Shown piece by piece: positions 2,451 to 22,912 of a DNA stretch of 27,196 nt (position 1 is its first letter; each line of letters opens with the position of its first letter). The DNA is from Nanobdellota archaeon. GTDB lineage: Archaea > Nanobdellota > Nanobdellia > Pacearchaeales > GW2011-AR1. The position numbers and the translations under genes are program-made. The stretch is from the NCBI GenBank assembly GCA_018816625.1, contig JAHIVR010000108.1, forward strand, positions 1 through 27,196, written 5' to 3'. A model generated the notes under the pieces. That model did no database searches, was not told the origin of the DNA, and was given only the letters and a program-made list of their open reading frames with translations.

Positions 2451-2478
2451 TTACTTTGGCCAAGCCTGGACGAAGTAA
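2451..2478. repeat. Palindromic mini-element copy A (TTACTTTGGCCAAGCCTGGACGAAGTAA)
   Basis: 27/28 identical to 11990-12017; imperfect hairpin; lies between the putative TATA box and the ATG of the protease. Confidence 0.85.
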
Positions 2479-3042: not shown

Positions 3043-3109
3043 AAATGAGCCTACTCTAAACCGGCTACGCTTGGACGGAAATCGAATAGTTAGAAAAATG
3101 AGCCTACTC
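3043..3109. repeat. 14-bp duplication of the tRNA-Ile 3' end (AAATGAGCCTACTC at 3043-3056 and 3096-3109) enclosing mini-element copy B (3057-3095)
   Basis: Exact 14-bp direct repeat; the 39-bp insert contains GGCTACGCTTGGACG, 14/15 identical to the core at 9601-9615. Confidence 0.75.
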
Positions 3110-3219
3110 GGATTCGAACCGAGGACCCCTGCCTTTCTTAGAAAAACTAAGATACCTACAATCCTAACGGACCGCATTCATATAAGAGCAGTGCTCTGAC
3201 CAGGCTGAGCTATAGGCTC
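3099..3219 (-). tRNA. tRNA-Ile(UAU) with a 46-nt intron (3135-3180) at position 37/38
   Basis: Cloverleaf: acceptor GAGCCTA/TAGGCTC plus discriminator A, D stem GCTC/GAGC, anticodon stem CTGCT/GGCAG, loop CT-TAT-A|A, T arm CTCGG-TTCGAAT-CCGAG. Canonical BHB (CTTA:TAAG helix, bulges TA|T and AA|A). No encoded CCA. Confidence 0.93.
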
Positions 3220-3351
3220 CTGACTTATAAAACATAAATATCTTTCTATTTAAAGGTTTTTAGTTAGTTTTAAAAAGCATTTTTATCTCTAAGCAATATC
3301 AACTATATTAAAGGAAAGTTGAATGTCAAGAAAACCATAGGTTGTCTTACA

Positions 3352-3498
3352 GCCCCGTTAGTACAGAGGCCAAGTATGCTGCCCTTTCAAATGACGGCAC
3401 AAGTCGGCGTTTGTTGAGGAAACCTTGTGTTTCCGATTCAAATGGCACGACCATCATGAAGCACGGCAGTGACCCGGGTTCGAATCCCGGACGGGGCG
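3352..3498 (+). tRNA. tRNA-Glu(UUC) with a 74-nt intron (3390-3463) at position 37/38
   Basis: Acceptor GCCCCGT/ACGGGGC plus G, anticodon stem CTGCC/GGCAG, anticodon TTC at 3386-3388, T arm CCGGG-TTCGAAT-CCCGG. BHB: CTTT:GAAG helix with bulges CA|A and CA|C. Confidence 0.95.
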
Positions 3499-3532
3499 TA
3501 TAGCCTTTTTGGCACCCAAAGGAGATGAAGAA

Positions 3533-4483
3533 TTACTTATCTAGGTGACCACTTTTCTTTACTTTCTTCTTTTTTGTAGTCACCTCTTTTAAAGTTTTCT
3601 TATATTGTTTGATCAAGAATCTTAATGTAGTCTTAATATCATCTTGTTTGGAATACTTTTGAAGAGTTTGATAGTATTCCATTCTATCTTCAAGCATAAT
3701 GTTTATTGGAGGAGATTTATTTTTAAGAAGAATGAAATTAAGAAGCAATCTTCCAACTCTTCCATTCCCATCCTGAAAGGGGTGAATATGCTCAAACTGA
3801 TTATGCATTATTCCTGCAAGTGCTAAAGGTTTGAATTTATCTTTATTTTCTTTATACCACTCAATAAAATCCTCTAAATAATCTTTAAGTTCCTCCTTTG
3901 GAACTCCTGCATGAAGAATATGCCCTGCAGAATTTCTAACAACAACATTAACATTTCTGAATTTTCCTGCAAATGGCTTAGCCCCCTTGAAACATAACTC
4001 ATGTAATTTTAAAAGTAGTTTTATCGAGACATCTTCCTTAGTTTTTCTTATATAATTTACAGCTCCTGCAACACCCTTAGTTTCTACCTCTTCTTCATTT
4101 TCCGCTCGTATTTTTGAAAGAATCTCAGGAACTTCTTCTTCTGTAACAATTGATCCTTCAATTGCATTAGTATTATAAACAAAATCTTGTGTAAAAATCT
4201 CCCACTCTTTATCACTTAAATGGACAATGTCAATTTTATCACTATACTTGTTTAAAGTTTCAATCTGTTTTTTTGTCAAGGAAAATAAAAAAACATCCGT
4301 GTTAATTTTTTCCAGCAATTCCTTTATCTTTTTTTCGGCCTTTTTTCTGGCTTTTTCCAGTTCTTCCTTAGAAAGATTTGCTCCCAGATATTTTCTTATC
4401 TTTTCTACTCTTTCTTTATCTCTGTAAGAATGAACAAGATAATATTTTATTGATTTACCTGATTTTCTTTTTTCAATATACAT
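3533..4483 (-). CDS. Fic-domain protein (intramolecular-inhibition type) with N-terminal KYLG module
   Basis: Canonical HPFQDGNGRVGR motif (3749-3784); the N-terminal inhibitory motif TNAIEG matches (S/T)xxxE(G/N). Confidence 0.92.
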   Translation of the reverse strand: MYIEKRKSGKSIKYYLVHSYRDKERVEKIRKYLGANLSKEELEKARKKAEKKIKELLEKINTDVFLFSLTKKQIETLNKYSDKIDIVHLSDKEWEIFTQDFVYNTNAIEGSIVTEEEVPEILSKIRAENEEEVETKGVAGAVNYIRKTKEDVSIKLLLKLHELCFKGAKPFAGKFRNVNVVVRNSAGHILHAGVPKEELKDYLEDFIEWYKENKDKFKPLALAGIMHNQFEHIHPFQDGNGRVGRLLLNFILLKNKSPPINIMLEDRMEYYQTLQKYSKQDDIKTTLRFLIKQYKKTLKEVTTKKKKVKKSGHLDK

Positions 4484-4494
4484 AATATATCAAA

Positions 4495-4534
4495 GGTGCC
4501 CACGTTTATAAATATTTCTACTTTTGTGGTCACC
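4495..4534. promoter_or_regulatory. fic1 promoter: TATA box TTTATAAA (4505-4512) flanked by inverted repeat GGTGCCCAC / GTGGTCACC
   Basis: The TATA box lies 21 nt before the ATG at 4483; IR arms at 4495-4503 and 4526-4534 (8/9 match). Confidence 0.55.
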
Positions 4535-4548
4535 CCTACCCATACAAT

Positions 4549-4570
4549 CCATCTTGACAATCTTTATAAA
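4549..4570 (+). repeat. 22-bp repeat CCATCTTGACAATCTTTATAAA (second copy 6684-6705)
   Basis: 21/22 identity between the copies; ends in a TATA-like TTTATAAA. Confidence 0.75.
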
Positions 4571-4600
4571 ATTTAAAGATCACAACAAACTATAACCAAG

Positions 4601-4648
4601 TCGAGATAAAAAGAGTCCCATGGACTTGGTCTAGATCGTCTCGGATTC
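4601..4648 (+). repeat. 48-bp direct repeat, left copy, bounding the MNT-HEPN cassette
   Basis: 45/48 identical to 5484-5531. Confidence 0.9.
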
Positions 4649-4659
4649 TAAATATGTAC

Positions 4660-4691
4660 GTCTACACCACAAGATTTATATATTAGTAGAC
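4660..4691. promoter_or_regulatory. MNT-HEPN promoter: TATA box TTTATATA (4675-4682) inside inverted repeat GTCTAC-N20-GTAGAC
   Basis: The TATA box lies 21 nt before the ATG at 4704; perfect 6-bp IR at 4660-4665 and 4686-4691. Confidence 0.5.
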
Positions 4692-4703
4692 ACACAATAT
4701 TGT

Positions 4704-5168
4704 ATGGTATTTACAGAAATTAAAGAAAGAAACAAGAAAAAATATTATTACCGAGTTTTATCTGTAAGAAATAGTAGGAAAGTGGCAAAAAAACGAAAAT
4801 ACTTAGGTGTTGATTTATCAAAAAAAGACCTTCAGAAAAAAGAAGCGGAAGCTGATAAAATTTTAGGGATTGAAAATAAAAAAGAAACAGAAGCTCTAAA
4901 AAAAATAAAAACTCAAATTTTGAAAATTTTAAAGCAATACAAAATAAAAAAAGCAAGTATTTTTGGAAGTTATGCAAGAGGAGATTTTAAAAAAAAGAGT
5001 GATATCGATCTAATAATCCAACCAACTCCTGGAATGGGATTGGAATTTGTAGGCCTTGCATTAGAATTAGAAGATAAACTTGGAAAAAAGATCGATTTAC
5101 TTACATACAAAAGTATTCATCCTTTAATTAAAAAAAGTGTAATGGAAGATGAAATTAGAATAATATGA
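4704..5168 (+). CDS. mntA: Minimal nucleotidyltransferase (MntA-type antitoxin) with N-terminal KYLG module
   Basis: GSX10DXD motif: GS-YARGDFKKKS-DID; overlaps the HEPN gene by 4 bp. Confidence 0.9.
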   Translation: MVFTEIKERNKKKYYYRVLSVRNSRKVAKKRKYLGVDLSKKDLQKKEAEADKILGIENKKETEALKKIKTQILKILKQYKIKKASIFGSYARGDFKKKSDIDLIIQPTPGMGLEFVGLALELEDKLGKKIDLLTYKSIHPLIKKSVMEDEIRII

Positions 5169-5506
5169 TCAAAAATAATCCAAACACATATATTAAACAC
5201 ATTCTAGAAAATATAAAAGACATAGAAGAATTTTCTAAAGAATTAACTAAAAATAAAATATCTGAAGATAAACTAAGACAAAAAGCAATCATTAGATCAA
5301 TAGAAATTATTGGAGAAGCTGTTAAAAATCTTCCAGAATCATTTAGAAAAAACTACCCAAAAATCCCTTGGAAGAAAATTGCTGGAACAAGAGATAGAAT
5401 CATCCATCATTATTTTGGAATAGATTTGGACATTGTTTGGGAAATAATTAAAAAAGATCTTCCTGCATTAAAAAAGCAAATACTCGAGATAAAAAGAGTC
5501 CCATAG
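5165..5506 (+). CDS. hepT: HEPN / DUF86 RNase toxin (HepT-type)
   Basis: AIIRSIEIIGEA and PWKKIAGTRDRIIHHY (R-X4-H followed by Tyr); paired with the MNT gene. Confidence 0.9.
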   Translation: MIKNNPNTYIKHILENIKDIEEFSKELTKNKISEDKLRQKAIIRSIEIIGEAVKNLPESFRKNYPKIPWKKIAGTRDRIIHHYFGIDLDIVWEIIKKDLPALKKQILEIKRVP

Positions 5507-5531
5507 ACTTGGTCCAGATCGTCTCTGATTC
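5484..5531 (+). repeat. 48-bp direct repeat, right copy; supplies the last codons and stop of hepT
   Basis: 45/48 identical to 4601-4648; TAG here versus TGG in the left copy. Confidence 0.9.
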
Positions 5532-5557
5532 GGACGGGGCGTAATACCATTTTGGCA
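5531..5557 (+). repeat. Copy of the tRNA-Glu 3' end plus trailer (att-like)
   Basis: CGGACGGGGCGTA is identical to 3488-3500; 23/27 identity over 3488-3514. Confidence 0.8.
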
Positions 5558-5583
5558 TAATAGAGTGATGTATTTTTTCTAAT

Positions 5584-5624
5584 GTAGTACATAATAGAAA
5601 GATTTAAATAAGAGTAGTACATAA
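5584..5624 (+). promoter_or_regulatory. fic2 promoter: TATA box TTTAAATA (5603-5610) between direct repeats GTAGTACATAA
   Basis: Exact 11-bp direct repeats at 5584-5594 and 5614-5624; the TATA box lies 21 nt before the ATG at 5632. Confidence 0.6.
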
Positions 5625-5631
5625 CTAATCT

Positions 5632-6537
5632 ATGGTTACCGAAAAACAAATAGAAGTTAAAGGAAAAAAATACTGGATACTAATTCACTCAGTCAGAAAA
5701 GGGAATAAAGTTATTCAAAAGAAAAAGTATATTGGTAAATCCCTTCCTCCAAAAACTAGGTTGGAGCAGTTAAAAAAAGAATTCTTACAGGAACTTTCTG
5801 GAGACAAATATAAATATCTTTCTAAAGAAGATTTGGAAAAAATTGAGGAAAAGAAAAGAAAATATAAACAAGAATTAAAAAAACTAAGCAAAATAGAGAA
5901 AGAAAAAAAGCTAAATGAATTTGCGATTAGATATACTTATGACAGTAGTAAACTTTCGGGGATTAATGTTACATTAAGACAAACTTTTTTAATTCTAAAA
6001 GAAGGAATAATTCCAAAAGACTTTAAAAACTTAAGAATTGCCAAAGAAATCGAAAACCATGAAAAAGGATTTATTGCAATAACAAAATACAAAGGCAAAT
6101 TTGACATTAACTTTCTAAAAAAATTGCACAAGGTTCTTTTTTCTGGAATTGATGATACAATTACTGGCAAGCTAAGAAATGAACTAAAGAGAGATGTGAA
6201 AATAGCTGGAACCGCTTATGTGCCTCCTAAATGGACTGAAATAAAAAAAGAATTGGATGAATTTTTTAAATGGTATAAAGCAAGTAATAGAAAATTGCAT
6301 CCTTTAGAGCTAGCTTCATTAATACATTTAAAATTAATTTCAATACAACCTTTTGTTGATGGAAACAGCAGATTATCAAGATTGTTAATGAATTGGATTT
6401 TATGGAAAAAAAGTTATCCTTTAATAGATATTCCCATAGAAGACTTGGAAAATTATTATGATGCCCTTGATAAATACCAGATTGAAAAGGATGAAAGGCC
6501 TTTTGTAGATTATATTAAAAAGAAGTATTTATCTTAG
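5632..6537 (+). CDS. Fic-domain protein with substituted active site (His to Gln) and N-terminal KYIG module
   Basis: QPFVDGNSRLSR at 6346-6381 replaces HPFxDGNGRxxR; the inhibitory helix reads SSKLSG (no Glu). Confidence 0.88.
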   Translation: MVTEKQIEVKGKKYWILIHSVRKGNKVIQKKKYIGKSLPPKTRLEQLKKEFLQELSGDKYKYLSKEDLEKIEEKKRKYKQELKKLSKIEKEKKLNEFAIRYTYDSSKLSGINVTLRQTFLILKEGIIPKDFKNLRIAKEIENHEKGFIAITKYKGKFDINFLKKLHKVLFSGIDDTITGKLRNELKRDVKIAGTAYVPPKWTEIKKELDEFFKWYKASNRKLHPLELASLIHLKLISIQPFVDGNSRLSRLLMNWILWKKSYPLIDIPIEDLENYYDALDKYQIEKDERPFVDYIKKKYLS

Positions 6538-6782
6538 TTGGAATTTCCTCAGCTCTTTCTCATATGAAATTCTAATGTGCAAATCAAAAGAAGAAATCAA
6601 GAAACTCATAAAACAATCAGTAAAAAACAGAGAAGCCATGCCTTTATTGTTGTGGTTGTGTAAAGAATCTTGATCTATCACTCCCATCTCGACAATCTTT
6701 ATAAATAAAAGCAGTCACTTATAAAGTATCGGACTATTATCATCCGCTGTGAAAAAGTTGATCACACTAAAATCACAAGATA

Positions 6783-6804
6783 CTGCCCTTTACGGTCGGG
6801 GCGT
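6783..6804 (+). repeat. Degenerate tRNA-Glu remnant / distal att-like site
   Basis: CTGCCCTTT (6783-6791) equals tRNA-Glu 3379-3387; CGGTCGGGGCGT (6793-6804) matches the 3' end at 11/12. Confidence 0.5.
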
Positions 6805-7943
6805 TTATTCTCTTGATAAAAGACTTTCTAATCTAGAAATATAACTATCCCAGGTGTTCTCCCTTCTAACTTTCTCTCTAGCCCTATCAACCATCTCTCT
6901 TACAGAAGCAGGATTATCCTTAAAAAAGTTAAAAGCACTAACAATATCCTCAGATTTTTCCGAAGGACCAATAGTATAATCACTCCTACTAGTTATTGTG
7001 GGCAATCCAACATCCATTGCATCAATAACCGTCTTTGCAAAAAGGCCATCAGTAACCATTGGTTGAATCAAAACATCTGAAGCAAAATAATTCTTAAAGA
7101 AATCAATTCTCCCTTGAGGAGTTTTCTTATCAATCCAGGAAACCAAAACCACTCTTTCCAACAGACAGGATTCAACCCAGCACCAACAAGACTATCTTTT
7201 CCTTTTTCTCCAGATCCAAGAAGGATTAATTTAGTTGAGGGATGAGACTCCATAATATTACCAAAAGCATCAAAAAGCTCTCTTCCTCTTTTTCCAAGAC
7301 CTAATCTTCCATAATAAAGAAGGACATTTTCAGAGTCAAGCCCTGCTCTATACCTCTCCCCTTCAACCCTAGCACCATCTAAAATTTCTGAATCGAGCAC
7401 AGAAACATCCGAAACATTCTCAAAAACACCAACTCTTTTGTCAAACCCCAGTCTTTCTAAAGCAAGTTTATGTAATTCGCTTATTGCTAAAAGAACATTA
7501 GAACGCCCTATTGCTTTTAATTGAGACCTCTCCCTCTCGCTCATAACAAAATCAATAATCTGCCTCATCTCTCCTTCAGGCAGAGTCCCATCCAAGAAAG
7601 ATGGTTTAAGATGAGCTGACAAATAGAAATAAGGAATAACGGCATGAAGATTCATAACAATTTGCGATTCAGAATCAGCACTAATTCCTCCAAGAAGCCC
7701 ATCGTGTTCCCACGTGTGACTTTGCAAGTAATATGTTCCTTTTGTGCCTATAGCATCTGGAGAAACAATAGTTGGCTTTTCTGTATCAAGATCAAGCCTT
7801 TTTACCGGGCCTCCAAACCAATTAGCATAATACTCAATAGGATACCCCCTATCGGCCATTTGTCTAGCAAAAGCGAAAGCATGCTCAAAAGTACCACTAT
7901 TTTGTCTTTCAATTCCCAAAACAACGTGTCTTCCTTGTTTCAT
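6805..7943 (-). pseudogene. GT-B (GT4-like) glycosyltransferase split by an apparent 1-nt frameshift near 7165-7170 (or a sequencing error)
   Basis: Upstream frame: MKQGRHVVLG...LLYYGRLGLGKRG...LILLGSG. The downstream frame carries the C-terminal half (SDVLIQP..DGLFAKTVIDAMDVGLPTI...ENTWD). The frames join as GLNP-x-LLERV if one base is added. Confidence 0.75.
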
Positions 7944-8073
7944 CTTAACTTTCCTAATTATCACCAAAACATAATTTTCGGTTAAATTCAATCGAAAAAA
8001 TTTTTAACCGTTTATATATCTTTCCCAAGATTTTTCATAAAACCCTTATAAACCCCCACCACATTTATAAGAT

Positions 8074-8892
8074 ATGAGAAAAAGATACTCCTTTTCTTCA
8101 AGACACACAGGGCAGGCAAAAGATCCAAAAAACATTAGAAAGGAAAAGGCCAAATTTCCAGCAATACTACAAAAACTCCTTTACGAGGCAGACATAATAA
8201 TCCAGGTCTTGGATGCAAGATTTATTGAAGAAACAAGAAACAAAGATCTTGAAAAATACGTTGAAAAATCATCTAAAGGAATGATTTACGTAATAAACAA
8301 GTCCGATTTGGCAGAAAAAATAAAAGAAGTGCCAAAACCACACGCAATGGTCTCTTGTAAAAACAGGAAGGGTATACGAGTCTTAAGAGACAAAATAAAA
8401 ATACTCGCATCTAGAATTAAAAAAGACAAAATCACTGTGGGAATTGTTGGCTACCCCAATACCGGCAAATCCTCACTAATAAATCTCCTGATAGGAAAAA
8501 AATCAGCCCCCTCCGCTCCCCAACCAGGGTACACAAAAGGAGTACAGAAACTAAAGCTATCTGGAAACATCCTACTTATAGACAGCCCGGGAGTAATTCC
8601 AAAAGAAGAATACTCTTCAATTGAAGAGAACCTCATTACAAAACACACCAAGGTTGGATCACGTTCATATTCAAGCGTAAAAAATCCAGAGCAAATAATT
8701 GCTAGTTTAATGAGAGAATTTCCAAATCTGCTAGAAGAACACTATTCAATAGAAGCTCAAGGAAACTCAGAAATCCTTTTGGAAGAGCTGGGAAAAAGAA
8801 AAAATCTTCTCAAAAAAAGAGGGGAAGTAAACTTCGATAGTGCTTCAAGATTAATACTAAAAGACTGGCAGACCGGTAAAATCAAGGTTTAG
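8074..8892 (+). CDS. Circularly permuted ribosome-biogenesis GTPase (RbgA/YlqF family)
   Basis: Motif order G4 (NKSD), then G1 (GYPNTGKS), then G3 (DSPG); also QVLDAR. Confidence 0.9.
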   Translation: MRKRYSFSSRHTGQAKDPKNIRKEKAKFPAILQKLLYEADIIIQVLDARFIEETRNKDLEKYVEKSSKGMIYVINKSDLAEKIKEVPKPHAMVSCKNRKGIRVLRDKIKILASRIKKDKITVGIVGYPNTGKSSLINLLIGKKSAPSAPQPGYTKGVQKLKLSGNILLIDSPGVIPKEEYSSIEENLITKHTKVGSRSYSSVKNPEQIIASLMREFPNLLEEHYSIEAQGNSEILLEELGKRKNLLKKRGEVNFDSASRLILKDWQTGKIKV

Positions 8893-9082
8893 GATCAATC
8901 TCAAGATAAAATATTCTTACGGGAGAATACATCTTACACTTCCCATTGTTATTGGGGTCATGAGAACAAACAGAACAATCACCAACCCCCTCGCCTCTCA
9001 TAAAAGGAGGCATATAAACCTCCTCTTTTGGTCTAAAAACCTGATGAACGCATTTTACAGAACTCTCAAGTTCCATCCACAA
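8882..9082 (-). CDS. Small Cys-containing hypothetical protein
   Basis: Fills the gap downstream of elp3 on the same strand and has CSVC plus further Cys; no family recognised. Confidence 0.45.
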   Translation of the reverse strand: MWMELESSVKCVHQVFRPKEEVYMPPFMRGEGVGDCSVCSHDPNNNGKCKMYSPVRIFYLEIDPKP

Positions 9083-9100
9083 ACAAATAATCTTTATTAT

Positions 9101-10600
9101 TTAAAACTTCTTAACCATGTAAGAACCTTCTAATCTGTAACCCATCTTATGATAATACTCCCTAACTCCAACACCAGAAATAACCTTTAACTCTTCAATT
9201 TTATTCTTCAAAACAATCCTCTCAGCCTCTCCCATGAGCCACTTACCTAATCCGGTATGCTGTCCCAACTTCCCTTCTGCACCAAGGGCAAGAGCCTGTC
9301 CGTAAACATGAAGCTCCCTAACAATTGCATGTTTGACTCGCTTCGCTCGAGAATTTTTAGAAGCATTAACTGATAGTTCATTTTGAGTTTTACCATTAAC
9401 CTTGTAAGAGGCAGTGGTCGGAGATGTGGAGGATTTAGATAAATCTTCATCAAATATTCTCAGCCTAAGTAATCCAAAAAGGATATTATCTTTATTCACA
9501 ATCTCTAAAAAATACTCCTCTCCTCCGGAAGCCTTGTATCTAACAACCTTCAATTTAATATTTTTATCAACATCAATATTAAAACCTATTTCTCCACCTT
9601 GGCCACGCTTGGACGAGGTTCGCGACAAAGCAAACCCTATCTCTCTCATTCTTATCTCACTAATTTTTCTTCCAGAATCCCTTATTTTTTGTTCCACATC
9701 CTTTCTTAAATCAATTCTAACAGGATCAAACGCCATTTTTTCCTTAGGAATCTCTCTCATGACCCTCATTACCCTGCAATACTCTGGAATAATATCCATT
9801 ATTTTATTTATAATCTCTCTTGTCTGTGCTTCGTTATACGGCTCATAATTAATTTTCTTATACATACTAGCCAAAGGAGAATCATCCACTATCTGGCACG
9901 GGTAAATCTTTAATTGATCCGGTCTAAACCTATCATCAGAATATATCTTCTTAAACAACCTGATATCTTTCCCTGGATTACTATAAGGTAACCCGGGCAT
10001 AACATGATAACCCACCTTAAATCCAGCGTCCTTCAGCCTCTTAGTTGCATCAACAACATCTTTAACCGTGTGCCCGCGTTTTATCTTCTTATAAATTTCA
10101 TCGTCTAAAATCTGAATTCCAATTTCAACCCTTGTGCACCCAAATTCTAACATTCTCTTTACCTCTTCATCACTACAATTATCTGGTCGGTTCTCTATGC
10201 ACATAGCAACACACCTGTGTCTTGATTTTTCATTCAGTTTCTTAGCCTCTTCCAGATTCTTACTCTTTTTATCGTTAAGCGCATCAAAACAAGCCTTAAT
10301 GTACCCGTACTGATAATCTAAATCATATTGTAAAAAAGTTCCTCCAAGAATTATTAACTCGATCTTATCTGTTGGATGCCCCATCTTCTCAAGAGTATCT
10401 AATCTAGATTTAACTTGTTCAAACGGGTCGTATTTCAAAGCCATGGCCCTCATTATTGCCGGACTCTTATCGGTATAGCTCTGTGGAACAAACTCCCCCC
10501 CAGGACAGTATATGCAGGTACCGTGATTACACTTTCTGGGTTTTAACACAACAGTTAAAGGAGTAACTCCAGATATTGTTCTTACAGGTTTCTTTGCCAT
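9101..10600 (-). CDS. elp3: Elp3 tRNA wobble-uridine carboxymethylation enzyme (radical SAM + KAT), with two peptide insertions
   Basis: CNHGTCIYCPGG, GCTRVEIGIQ, PDQLKIYP, RELHVYG, QHTGLGKWLM, VISGVGVREYY. Confidence 0.95.
   Translation of the reverse strand: MAKKPVRTISGVTPLTVVLKPRKCNHGTCIYCPGGEFVPQSYTDKSPAIMRAMALKYDPFEQVKSRLDTLEKMGHPTDKIELIILGGTFLQYDLDYQYGYIKACFDALNDKKSKNLEEAKKLNEKSRHRCVAMCIENRPDNCSDEEVKRMLEFGCTRVEIGIQILDDEIYKKIKRGHTVKDVVDATKRLKDAGFKVGYHVMPGLPYSNPGKDIRLFKKIYSDDRFRPDQLKIYPCQIVDDSPLASMYKKINYEPYNEAQTREIINKIMDIIPEYCRVMRVMREIPKEKMAFDPVRIDLRKDVEQKIRDSGRKISEIRMREIGFALSRTSSKRGQGGEIGFNIDVDKNIKLKVVRYKASGGEEYFLEIVNKDNILFGLLRLRIFDEDLSKSSTSPTTASYKVNGKTQNELSVNASKNSRAKRVKHAIVRELHVYGQALALGAEGKLGQHTGLGKWLMGEAERIVLKNKIEELKVISGVGVREYYHKMGYRLEGSYMVKKF
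9581..9645. repeat. Mini-element copy C (9595-9631, 37 bp) inserted in frame in elp3 between 14-bp direct repeats
   Basis: AAAACCTATTTCTC (9581-9594) versus AAACCCTATCTCTC (9632-9645), 12/14; the protein shows EIGF-ALSRTSSKRGQGG-EIGF. Confidence 0.8.
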
Positions 10601-11601: not shown

Positions 11602-12147
11602 TCATTTTTTTTTAATTTTAACTATGTCGAAGAAACTTTTCTTCTCAAAATCCTCTATCTTCATATCTTCAACATCAACACTAACCTTTAACAACCCCAA
11701 AGAAGAAATGAAGATAGTCCCTATAAGATAATGCTTTCCATCCTTCTTTTGTAAGGAAAAAAGTAATTTTTGTATCTTATTCTTAACCCCTTCTTTCTCC
11801 ATTCTACTCAAAATAAGATCTTCAACCTCATTAAAATCAAAATCCATATCCAAATCTATTTCTTTTGGAGGACTCTCTCCAAAAATATCAATAGAAGAAA
11901 GCTCACATCCCTTCTCTAATTTTAAGGAAAACATTTTTTTCTCTTCTGGAACAAAAAAATCAAAATGCTGTTGATTATCTGATTTTTCTTTACTTTGGCC
12001 AAGCTTGGACGAAGTAACAAGGGGCTCTGCTCCTTGCTTATCCATAACCAAAAACCCAGAGACTGGAATAGCCCCTTTATTATTTTTCATAAACTCTTCA
12101 TACTCGCTAGATCCCTTCAACTTCTCAACATAAAACTGGAAATTCAT
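11602..12147 (-). CDS. Hypothetical protein carrying an in-frame mini-element
   Basis: 181-aa ORF with composition typical of this window; the segment AEPLVTSSKLGQSKEK overlaps the palindrome. Confidence 0.8.
   Translation of the reverse strand: MNFQFYVEKLKGSSEYEEFMKNNKGAIPVSGFLVMDKQGAEPLVTSSKLGQSKEKSDNQQHFDFFVPEEKKMFSLKLEKGCELSSIDIFGESPPKEIDLDMDFDFNEVEDLILSRMEKEGVKNKIQKLLFSLQKKDGKHYLIGTIFISSLGLLKVSVDVEDMKIEDFEKKSFFDIVKIKKK
11990..12017. repeat. Palindromic mini-element copy E (TTACTTTGGCCAAGCTTGGACGAAGTAA), intragenic
   Basis: 30/31 identity with 2448-2478 over 11987-12017. Confidence 0.85.
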
Positions 12148-20346: not shown

Positions 20347-20957
20347 TGACATCCTCCCACACTAAAGTGTGGAGTTTCCATGATGCTCTGACTGATTTCT
20401 TACATAATTCCTGACTACATCAAGTTGAACAAATCCAACACTAGAAGCAAATTTTCCTCTACTCCACAAATGTCCTTTTGAATAACGAAGCCTTGCTTTT
20501 TTATGAAACTCAAAAAATAATTTTGAAGAACCTCCTTTCAATAATTGCAATGTCTTTGAAACAAACATCGTAAAACTTACTCCCACAACACAATGAACGT
20601 GTTCTGGTTGAACATCAAGTTCAATTATTTTTATGTTGTGTCTCGACGCTGATCTCCTAACGCAAGCAGTTAGAAGATTTTTATATTTTAGTTTTCTAAA
20701 CATCTTATATCAATATTTAATACACCATTCTAAATGTAACATCATAACTCCAACGCTATGATCTGTTCTTTCATACTGGTTAATTTGTAATTGTTCATCC
20801 ATTTTATTCTCCGAAAGGTTTATTTAGAAAGAAAGCTACTGCTAATTGTAACATTCAGGAGGTTAGTATCTAACCTTCTTTTATAATCAATTCTTAGAAT
20901 AAATAATCAGCGGGGAGAAACTTCACTCCATCTTAAAAAAATGGAGATTTCTTCTTA
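20347..20957 (-). mobile_element. IS200-family element (tnpA only)
   Basis: Subterminal hairpins CTCCAT-N9-ATGGAG (20926-20946) and CCACAC-TAAA-GTGTGG (20357-20372). On the minus strand the element follows TTAAC and ends ...GGAGGATGTCA. Boundaries are approximate. Confidence 0.8.
20362..20802 (-). pseudogene. tnpA: IS200 Y1 HUH transposase with an in-frame TGA at codon 31 (20710-20712)
   Basis: MDEQ...HSVG..LHLEWCIKY*YKMF, where TGA replaces the Arg of KYRY; HUH motif EHVH, LKGGSS, LWSRGKF, NYVRNQ. Confidence 0.9.
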
Positions 20958-21991: not shown

Positions 21992-22015
21992 AATTTGACC
22001 AAGCCTGAACAAATT
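21992..22015. repeat. Diverged mini-element copy F, intergenic downstream of htpX
   Basis: TTGACCAAGCCTGAACAAA is 16/19 identical to copy A; outer arms AATTTG/CAAATT. Confidence 0.55.
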
Positions 22016-22024
22016 TACAAAAAC

Positions 22025-22912
22025 TCACATTCGTTCTAAAACCTTTATCCTATCAGACAAAGGGGGATGTGTTCTTCCAGCATTCTTAAAAGGATTTGAT
22101 ATAAACAAAGGAGCAATAGCCTTATTTACTTTCTTTTCCGGCTCAGGATTCTCGCTCTGTATCTTTTTTAAAGCACTAATCAACCCATTAGGGTATCTTG
22201 TGAATTTAACTGCAGAAGCATCTGCACTAAACTCTCTTTTCCTTGAAATAGCCATTTGAACAAAAAATACAACAATTGGGGCAAGAATAGCCAAAACTAT
22301 TCCAATTATCATAAAAATAGCTCCAGCTCGATTGTCTTTTCCTCCACCACCTCCGGCCCCAAACCACAAACTCCTAAGAAAAAGCTGGCTTATTATAGAA
22401 ACCATTCCGACCATAACCGCAACAAGAGTCATGAATCTGATATCATAAGTAGCTATATGCCCAAGCTCGTGAGCTAAAACTCCTTCCAACTCTCTTTTAT
22501 CAAGTTTTTCCAATGCACCTTCAGTAACACAAATAACCGCATGCTCCGGATCTCTTCCACTAGCAAAAGCATTTATATTTTTTGATTTCATAATATAAAG
22601 TTTGGGTTTAGGCAAACCAGAAGCAAGAGTCAATCCTTCAACAAGGTTATGATACTCCCTATACTCGCTATCCTTCGCTTCTTTAGCACCAACACTCGCA
22701 ATTGCTATTTTATGGGAGTTGTAATAGCTTATCCAGATATAAAGAATTGATATTATTGTTGCTACAATCATTATAATAAAAAATAACCCAGGATCAGTTG
22801 CCATAGTTATAACATATCCTAAAACAATAATTACAATAAAAATTATTATCATAAGAAAAAAACTCTTCCACTTGTTTCTTGATATCTGGTCCCTAAAGTC
22901 TATTCTCTCCAT
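22025..22912 (-). CDS. htpX: Membrane zinc metalloprotease HtpX (M48)
   Basis: NAFASG, HELGH, SRKREFSADA, THPP..RI. Confidence 0.95.
   Translation of the reverse strand: MERIDFRDQISRNKWKSFFLMIIIFIVIIVLGYVITMATDPGLFFIIMIVATIISILYIWISYYNSHKIAIASVGAKEAKDSEYREYHNLVEGLTLASGLPKPKLYIMKSKNINAFASGRDPEHAVICVTEGALEKLDKRELEGVLAHELGHIATYDIRFMTLVAVMVGMVSIISQLFLRSLWFGAGGGGGKDNRAGAIFMIIGIVLAILAPIVVFFVQMAISRKREFSADASAVKFTRYPNGLISALKKIQSENPEPEKKVNKAIAPLFISNPFKNAGRTHPPLSDRIKVLERM

Follow-up and report, generated by a model that had tools for sequence, protein, structure and literature searches.

The short insertions found in the window, the whole stretch of 27,196 nucleotides analysed here, belong to a family of gene-less hairpin elements of about 25-80 nt in Pacearchaeota archaea, which are probably mobile. 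According to the best reading, to which we give a probability of about 0.6, these are single-strand elements that are recognised by their structure and home by replacing the ends of genes, possibly with a chemistry of the IS200/IS605 type. The family can be followed by its 15-nt core, GRCCAMGCYTGGRCR, which has 44 matches with at most one mismatch in the host genome (G000; 1.13 Mb, 78% complete) and is present in 60 of the 401 genomes of the host's family, as opposed to one match for a reversed control pattern. The core was absent from the 216 genomes searched from other families of the same class, the viral contigs searched with one core pattern gave no match, and the named records that bear the motif are Pacearchaeota or Nanoarchaeota MAGs. 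About 100 copies from relatives were taken from among the matches listed per genome, and 121 non-tandem (solo) copies, later 143, were analysed; the genomes of the relatives are incomplete and kin are not independent of each other. Literature searches, with most subscription papers outside their scope, found no description of a hairpin element family of this kind.

Five core copies lie in the window, as opposed to 0.2 expected by chance. Two of them, here called copy B and copy C, are flanked by direct repeats and are discussed below. Another core is located upstream of the subtilase gene (2458-2472, plus strand), where no repeat is detectable, a further one lies in frame within the ORF 11602-12147 (11997-12011, plus strand) and has a second hairpin after it, and a degenerate one (21997-22011, plus strand) lies behind the ORF 22025-22912, whose end KVLERM* is weakly echoed past the element as KDVETF* with the stop in register. 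The window also contains an IS200 tnpA gene (20362-20811, minus strand), which is separate from the element and has end hairpins of its own that are unlike those of the element. An earlier note on this DNA had considered the resident TnpA an improbable inserter, and this is probably right, because the gene is broken by an internal stop and its closest relative (88%) is found in an element-free genome.

Structure, strand and register of the element

The core forms the top of a hairpin, which is present in all copies, and the four pairs below it vary freely in sequence yet remain complementary, with 80-92% Watson-Crick pairing per pair. When the pair directly below the core is read on the transcript strand, C.A occurs in 74 copies as opposed to G.T in one, and for the next three arm pairs the counts are 23 and 1. 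Since C.A is far in excess of G.T on the transcript strand, wobble pairs exist on the antisense strand only; the hairpin, which is imperfect and has covarying arms, folds solely on that strand, opposite to the sense of the host gene. In terms of orientation, 85 copies point in the same direction as the upstream gene and six do not, with 45 unclear, a count in which the short contigs do not allow a replication-strand bias to be told from a transcription-strand bias and for which the composition of the target by itself predicts 64-68% co-orientation.

Among the 121 solo copies, the preferred start of the repeats is 5-6 nt away from the core, where the folding strand of the target has CYY as its last bases, with a G conserved in 90% at this fixed-register target. 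In one genus, comparison with the empty site shows that a 47-48-bp insert has its left edge at precisely this register. The 5' foot of the hairpin therefore abuts the CYY target at a fixed position, and the other end is variable. In copies B and C, 6 nt separate the left repeat from the core, which begins at 3063 and 9601, respectively, and the shared left register that the earlier note had recognised from these two cases is a real property of the family, as the preferred start and the empty site demonstrate. The TCG behind the hairpin, which had been regarded as a second shared feature, occurs in only 2 of the 143 solo copies and is not a family trait.

A subset of copies carries RTGA after the first hairpin. 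In this class, a second stem follows immediately after RTGA in 27 of 31 copies, compared with 4 of 28 in the control, and in 22 of these 27 it is directly followed by xCTT, with the tetranucleotide of the left end being repeated there in 18 of 27. A fuller form of the element is NCTT|hairpin-RTGA-second hairpin-NCTT|. The class was partly picked by the search pattern, which forced the left CTT and RTGA for many copies, whereas the second stem and the right end were not forced. Over all copies, the excess of second hairpins is significant compared with the 5' flank but not with the next 3' window, which is why the second hairpin is claimed for the RTGA class alone; copies B and C show no clear sign of it. 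Of the traits expected of a PATE of the IS200/IS605 type, strand-specific imperfect hairpins at both ends, the second one in the RTGA class, and a short fixed motif (CYY or NCTT) with the insertion on its 3' side were found.

Working and stranded gene ends

Many copies are located a few codons ahead of a stop codon, so that the upstream copy of the repeat completes the gene and the downstream copy is untranslated. These untranslated copies encode the same end in other codons, as in rpS7 (KQADSAR* and KQVDSAR*), and likewise in the genes of leucyl-tRNA synthetase, enolase, EF-1alpha and EF-2, as named by sequence likeness. At 24 separate coding sites, the codons that differ between the two copies comprise 39 synonymous and 22 non-synonymous changes, as opposed to the 25-38% synonymous changes expected under a null model with nothing but silent changes in the first copy and free decay in the second (p<=0.001). 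In addition, the stop codon is retained in 10 of 10 cases, and three serine codons have switched box. In a tree of the rpS7 gene body, which is based on a short alignment with modest support elsewhere, filled alleles occur in three places among 31 empty ones, and one of them is sister to an empty allele with a support of 0.998. The filled alleles all have one common arm, and the alanine codon of their working copy is GCC in 4 of 4 hosts as opposed to 2 of the 31 empty alleles. Therefore, the end in use moves along with the element, and the stranded one was until recently the working end of the host. At one locus (L016), three gene ends are even stacked behind each other.

Copy C is located in elp3, a radical SAM gene (9101-10600, minus strand), which it lengthens by 51 bp, or 17 codons, without disturbing the reading frame. 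The 37-bp insert (9595-9631, plus strand) consists of an arm, the core (9601-9615), an arm and the codons ALSR. On the minus strand, it is flanked downstream by a repeat with the host's own elp3 codons EIGF(N) (9581-9594) and upstream by another copy of EIGF (9632-9645), which is followed by ALSR and was presumably imported from another lineage. In the elp3 tree, the other three members of the host clade (support 100/97) all have EIGFN, as in the downstream repeat, and EIGFAL, which corresponds to the upstream repeat together with the spacer, is found in other lineages. An insertion of this type at the same elp3 site was absent from the 400 other genomes searched, with one match with one mismatch (G019) that has no core end. 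These observations fit a foreign piece that may have been carried in, as suggested by one tree and two amino acids.

Copy B is located at the 3' end of a tRNA gene with an intron (3099-3219, minus strand), which is one of two tRNAs that, with nothing else, were matched in an Rfam search of the window. We read it as tRNA-Ile(UAU), based on direct reading of the anticodon loop and the likeness to a tRNA-Ile(GAU) gene on another contig of the host genome (C150), while ARAGORN with introns gave Ser. The 39-bp insert (3057-3095, plus strand) comprises a 6-nt arm, the conserved 15-nt hairpin core (3063-3077, plus strand, which is the folding strand) and a spacer, and its lower arms pair poorly. The right repeat (3096-3109, minus strand) contains the working 3' end of the tRNA and three further nucleotides, and the left repeat (3043-3056, minus strand), identical in its letters, is the stranded 3' end; the tRNA end makes up 11 of the 14 nt. 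On contig C150, the same arm variant is also found behind the tRNA-Ile(GAU) gene, where two units in tandem occupy the same T-stem position, where relatives show other variants. Since tRNA ends are too conserved, a carried copy and a fresh duplication are indistinguishable at copy B.

Both repeats are thus located as described in the earlier note, with 14/14 matches around 39 bp in copy B and 12/14 around 37 bp in copy C, where both mismatches are synonymous, and a repeat score of at least 14 was obtained in only 3 of 1500 trials at random sites of the host genome. Over the family, a repeat score of at least 8 in register was found in 38 of 121 copies, compared with 1.5% with swapped flanks. 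The scored repeats span 8-43 nt, three of the 38 being 14 nt long, and the exact runs from the register span 2-28 nt, declining from 3-4 nt with a tail that includes 17, 18 and 28 nt. Exact repeats of 17-28 nt show that host sequence is also duplicated afresh. Two pairs of filled and empty sites have a duplication of at most 5 bp. In the host genome, 9 of the 12 scored repeats are 12-16 nt long, and in several cases this cluster results from a junction that lies 11-14 nt before the end of a tRNA or a stop codon. The staggered cut of about 14 nt proposed in the earlier note does not hold for the family, as no constant duplication length was found (14 nt in 2 of 143 exact runs): the repeat is variable, often undetectable, and in many cases a synonymously recoded homologue of the gene end and not a fill-in copy. 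As the repeat is not the product of a cut, it is also no argument against HUH chemistry of the IS200/IS605 type, contrary to the earlier reasoning.

Proposed mechanism and alternative explanations

In the mechanism that we propose, the element would be recognised as folded single-stranded DNA, and an enzyme acting in trans would join the 3' end of the target to the foot of the hairpin. If the incoming piece carries the homologous end of a gene or tRNA from another lineage, this would become the working end, leaving the host end stranded behind the hairpin. If it carries no homologue, the loose end could re-prime through microhomology, either at the site or ahead of it, which would leave no repeat at all or an exact repeat of host sequence whose length varies. 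For the far end, resolution might come from a second cut at NCTT, from annealing of the homologue carried along or from microhomology, and tandem arrays would arise by later unequal exchange. A wider reading is more tentative: a class of minimal, gene-less single-strand elements may move between archaeal species, with site-specific joining at the hairpin foot by a putative enzyme, a replacement end of the targeted essential gene or tRNA folded into the second hairpin, and new site-specific lineages founded whenever a copy captures another gene end.

IS200/IS605 elements have their left guide on the 5' side of the hairpin. Such a guide is not seen in the element; moreover, the spacer shows no excess of guide-like complementarity to the host flank over shuffled pairs, though single cases are suggestive. 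IS200/IS605 elements are not known to carry target homology. HUH/Y1-type chemistry is our first choice, although it is possibly no better than a guess, because the IS200/IS605 pattern consists of mismatched hairpins, tetranucleotides at the ends, which serve as guides, and circles of single-stranded DNA (PMC6006769; PMC8266576). Y1 transposases were found in 11 of 28 element-rich and 4 of 30 element-free genomes (p=0.036, uncorrected and with non-independent kin). The core was not found at the ends of any of the 20 Y1 loci inspected and is unlike the ends of the IS200 elements in these genomes. One Y1 subfamily of 136 aa was present in six element-rich genomes and in no element-free genome among the loci retrieved; it is absent from the host genome and not flanked by the core. 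None of the enzyme classes searched (Cas1, reverse transcriptase, XerA-like, GIY-YIG and Y1) tracks the element convincingly.

An unlikely explanation, which among the alternatives survives best, is homing of the WHO type, in which ordinary repair, after a cut in the empty allele by a nuclease acting in trans, would copy the filled allele with the stranded fragment as homology. The layout of the ends and the stacking of gene ends are as at FBA1 (PMC7282813; locus L016), a foreign working 3' end together with a stranded host end was found, and the host genome has 15 LAGLIDADG matches. However, WHO-type homing leaves the constancy of hairpin, strand and junction motif over dozens of unrelated sites unexplained, the homology is merely 10-45 nt, and the element is without a nuclease gene: no homing endonuclease gene was found between the two ends, the inserts being 27-82 nt long. 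Small GIY-YIG genes were present in 11 of 28 element-rich and 5 of 30 element-free genomes (p=0.08), with no core in 21 loci.

Less likely still is a tyrosine recombinase whose substrate is a folded single strand, comparable to integron attC, with the carried gene end as the attP core. Integrative elements typically carry a copy of their target, as the element does, the imperfect hairpin is strand-specific and variable in sequence, and the host genome has three recombinases. However, XerA-like recombinases show no association, as they are no rarer in element-free (27/30) than in element-rich genomes (19/27), the attC ends RYYYAAC/GTTRRRY are missing from the consensus, and no convincing long cargo cassette was found between distant repeats within 6 kb. 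Improbable, too, is a SINE-like, target-primed reverse transcription of a small RNA, with a fixed 3' end and a variable 5' end and duplication; it would suit the geometry of the single-hairpin class and an orientation that follows transcription, but selection for the structure acts on the opposite strand to the transcript, recoded copies are not given by this process alone, and reverse transcriptase was not found in the host genome and occurs in 15 of 27 element-rich and 13 of 30 element-free relatives. An intron passed on by inheritance, or an insert that can be excised, whose occasional removal from RNA or DNA would keep both copies coding, would account for purifying selection on both copies without transfer, yet it is very improbable, as the transcript strand folds poorly, no bulge-helix-bulge was seen by inspection, and filled alleles are scattered among empty sisters. 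Precise DNA excision between two NCTT ends is itself compatible with single-strand homing.

Finally, a Cas1 or casposase-like integrase with a staggered cut of about 14 nt, as suggested in the earlier note, could draw on the two 14-bp cases, the 12-16-nt cluster in the host genome and the 15-bp duplication made by the A. boonei casposase at the 3' end of a tRNA-Pro gene (PMC5137440), but it is already contradicted, and the specific claim should be dropped, since the exact runs have no spike at 14 nt and reach 28 nt, empty sites indicate at most 5 bp, repeats are recoded, the copies share no terminal inverted repeats, one end being fixed and the other variable, and Cas1 does not co-occur with the element (none found in the 78% complete host genome, 1/27 element-rich and 3/30 element-free relatives).

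Relation to known systems

The element combines ends like those of PATEs with an outcome like that of WHO elements, and lacks a defining trait of each. Like the PATEs of Haloquadratum walsbyi, it is gene-less, small (PATEs go down to about 50 bp), has near-terminal palindromes and follows a single-strand logic, and its right end is PATE-like, with a tetranucleotide 5' of the hairpin and a tetranucleotide end after it. Unlike the element, with its repeat in 38 of 121 copies, many of them recoded, PATEs cause no target duplication and contain nothing of the host's sequence (PMC3119063). Furthermore, a copy of the target gene end makes up the second hairpin of the element, which is different at every site, and the core shares no ends with TnpA-coding elements in these genomes. 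At FBA1 of yeast, a foreign gene 3' end is likewise swapped in, the old end is stranded and ends are stacked, whereas WHO elements encode a nuclease of their own and use a single gene and long homology (PMC7282813), and the element measures 30-80 nt, has no gene and occupies dozens of sites, with a junction that is fixed and structured.

Hairpin repeats of small size are also known from other systems, including the Rickettsia palindromic elements, which are often found in frame in proteins. CGTC-REP and NTS-SRM are short hairpin repeats associated with Ssn nucleases, which act on only one of the two strands (PMC3733652; PMC11893778). The element is no NTS-SRM repeat, as the SRM pattern was found in 0 of 121 copies and the GIY-YIG genes are not flanked by the core. 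Casposons can, like the element, occupy the 3' end of a tRNA between direct repeats, but their casposase requires terminal inverted repeats and gives a 15-bp duplication (PMC5137440), whereas the element lacks terminal inverted repeats, a constant length of duplication and a gene for Cas1 or PolB.

New here are the fixed register and the strand rule; in addition, a 14-bp cut of constant length is rejected, and numbers are put to the case for gene-end replacement. A short direct repeat flanking an insertion is not necessarily the scar of a staggered cut. If the proposed reading is correct, a gene-less element of 30-80 nt would be able to invade the genes of ribosomal proteins, synthetases, elongation factors and tRNAs harmlessly by bringing along a foreign gene end, uniting hairpin-guided single-strand transposition with homing by gene-end replacement, which have so far been known separately. 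This would point to a structure-specific joining enzyme with a three-base target and would explain the SKRGQ/RPSV peptide inserts in DPANN proteins, and the element would be a record of the exchange of gene ends between DPANN species.

IS200 transposases and nuclease genes

Among the loci retrieved, a subfamily of stand-alone IS200 TnpA proteins of 136 aa is encoded in six element-rich genomes (L185, L188, L190-L193) and in none that is element-free; the subfamily is absent from G000, the genome to which the window belongs. Three contigs of G000 (C136, C63 and C77) are viral or plasmid-like in appearance, and this group carries a long GIY-YIG gene together with intact tnpA-tnpB pairs. The 1.1-Mb G000 genome also yields 15 LAGLIDADG matches in both long and short frames (e.g., L308-L310). 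The GIY-YIG genes of 80-110 aa in Pacearchaeota (L229-L245) form two families, one of which often lies directly behind a tRNA gene; no hairpin cores flank these genes.

Arrangement of the element copies

Element units of 33-54 bp occur in tandem, with 2-4 per array, in G000 (C150, C186, C201, C220 and C232) and at L011 and L014, and several of these arrays are in frame within low-complexity protein regions. In G327, one gene end (MQDGISK...) is present three times, stacked and recoded (L016, contig C24), and the second gap between the stacked ends is occupied by filler sequence without the core. The 5' end of a tRNA in G248 (L005, contig C14) carries an element copy in the opposite orientation, and the five initial tRNA bases are repeated there.

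Insertions and repeats at other loci

The Elp3 loop hit by copy C in the window also contains an in-frame insert in G005 (L130), which is a GC-rich hairpin distinct from that of copy C and located directly behind EIGFN. Within the window, the nucleotidyltransferase-HepT pair that follows tRNA-Glu lies between the two copies of a 48-bp direct repeat (4601-4648 and 5484-5531, 94%), which is unrelated to the hairpin core. The leuS-end insertion of G000 contig C182 recurs with the same flanks on the metagenome contig Ga0180007_10016641 (L267), which is possibly a read source for the G000 organism.
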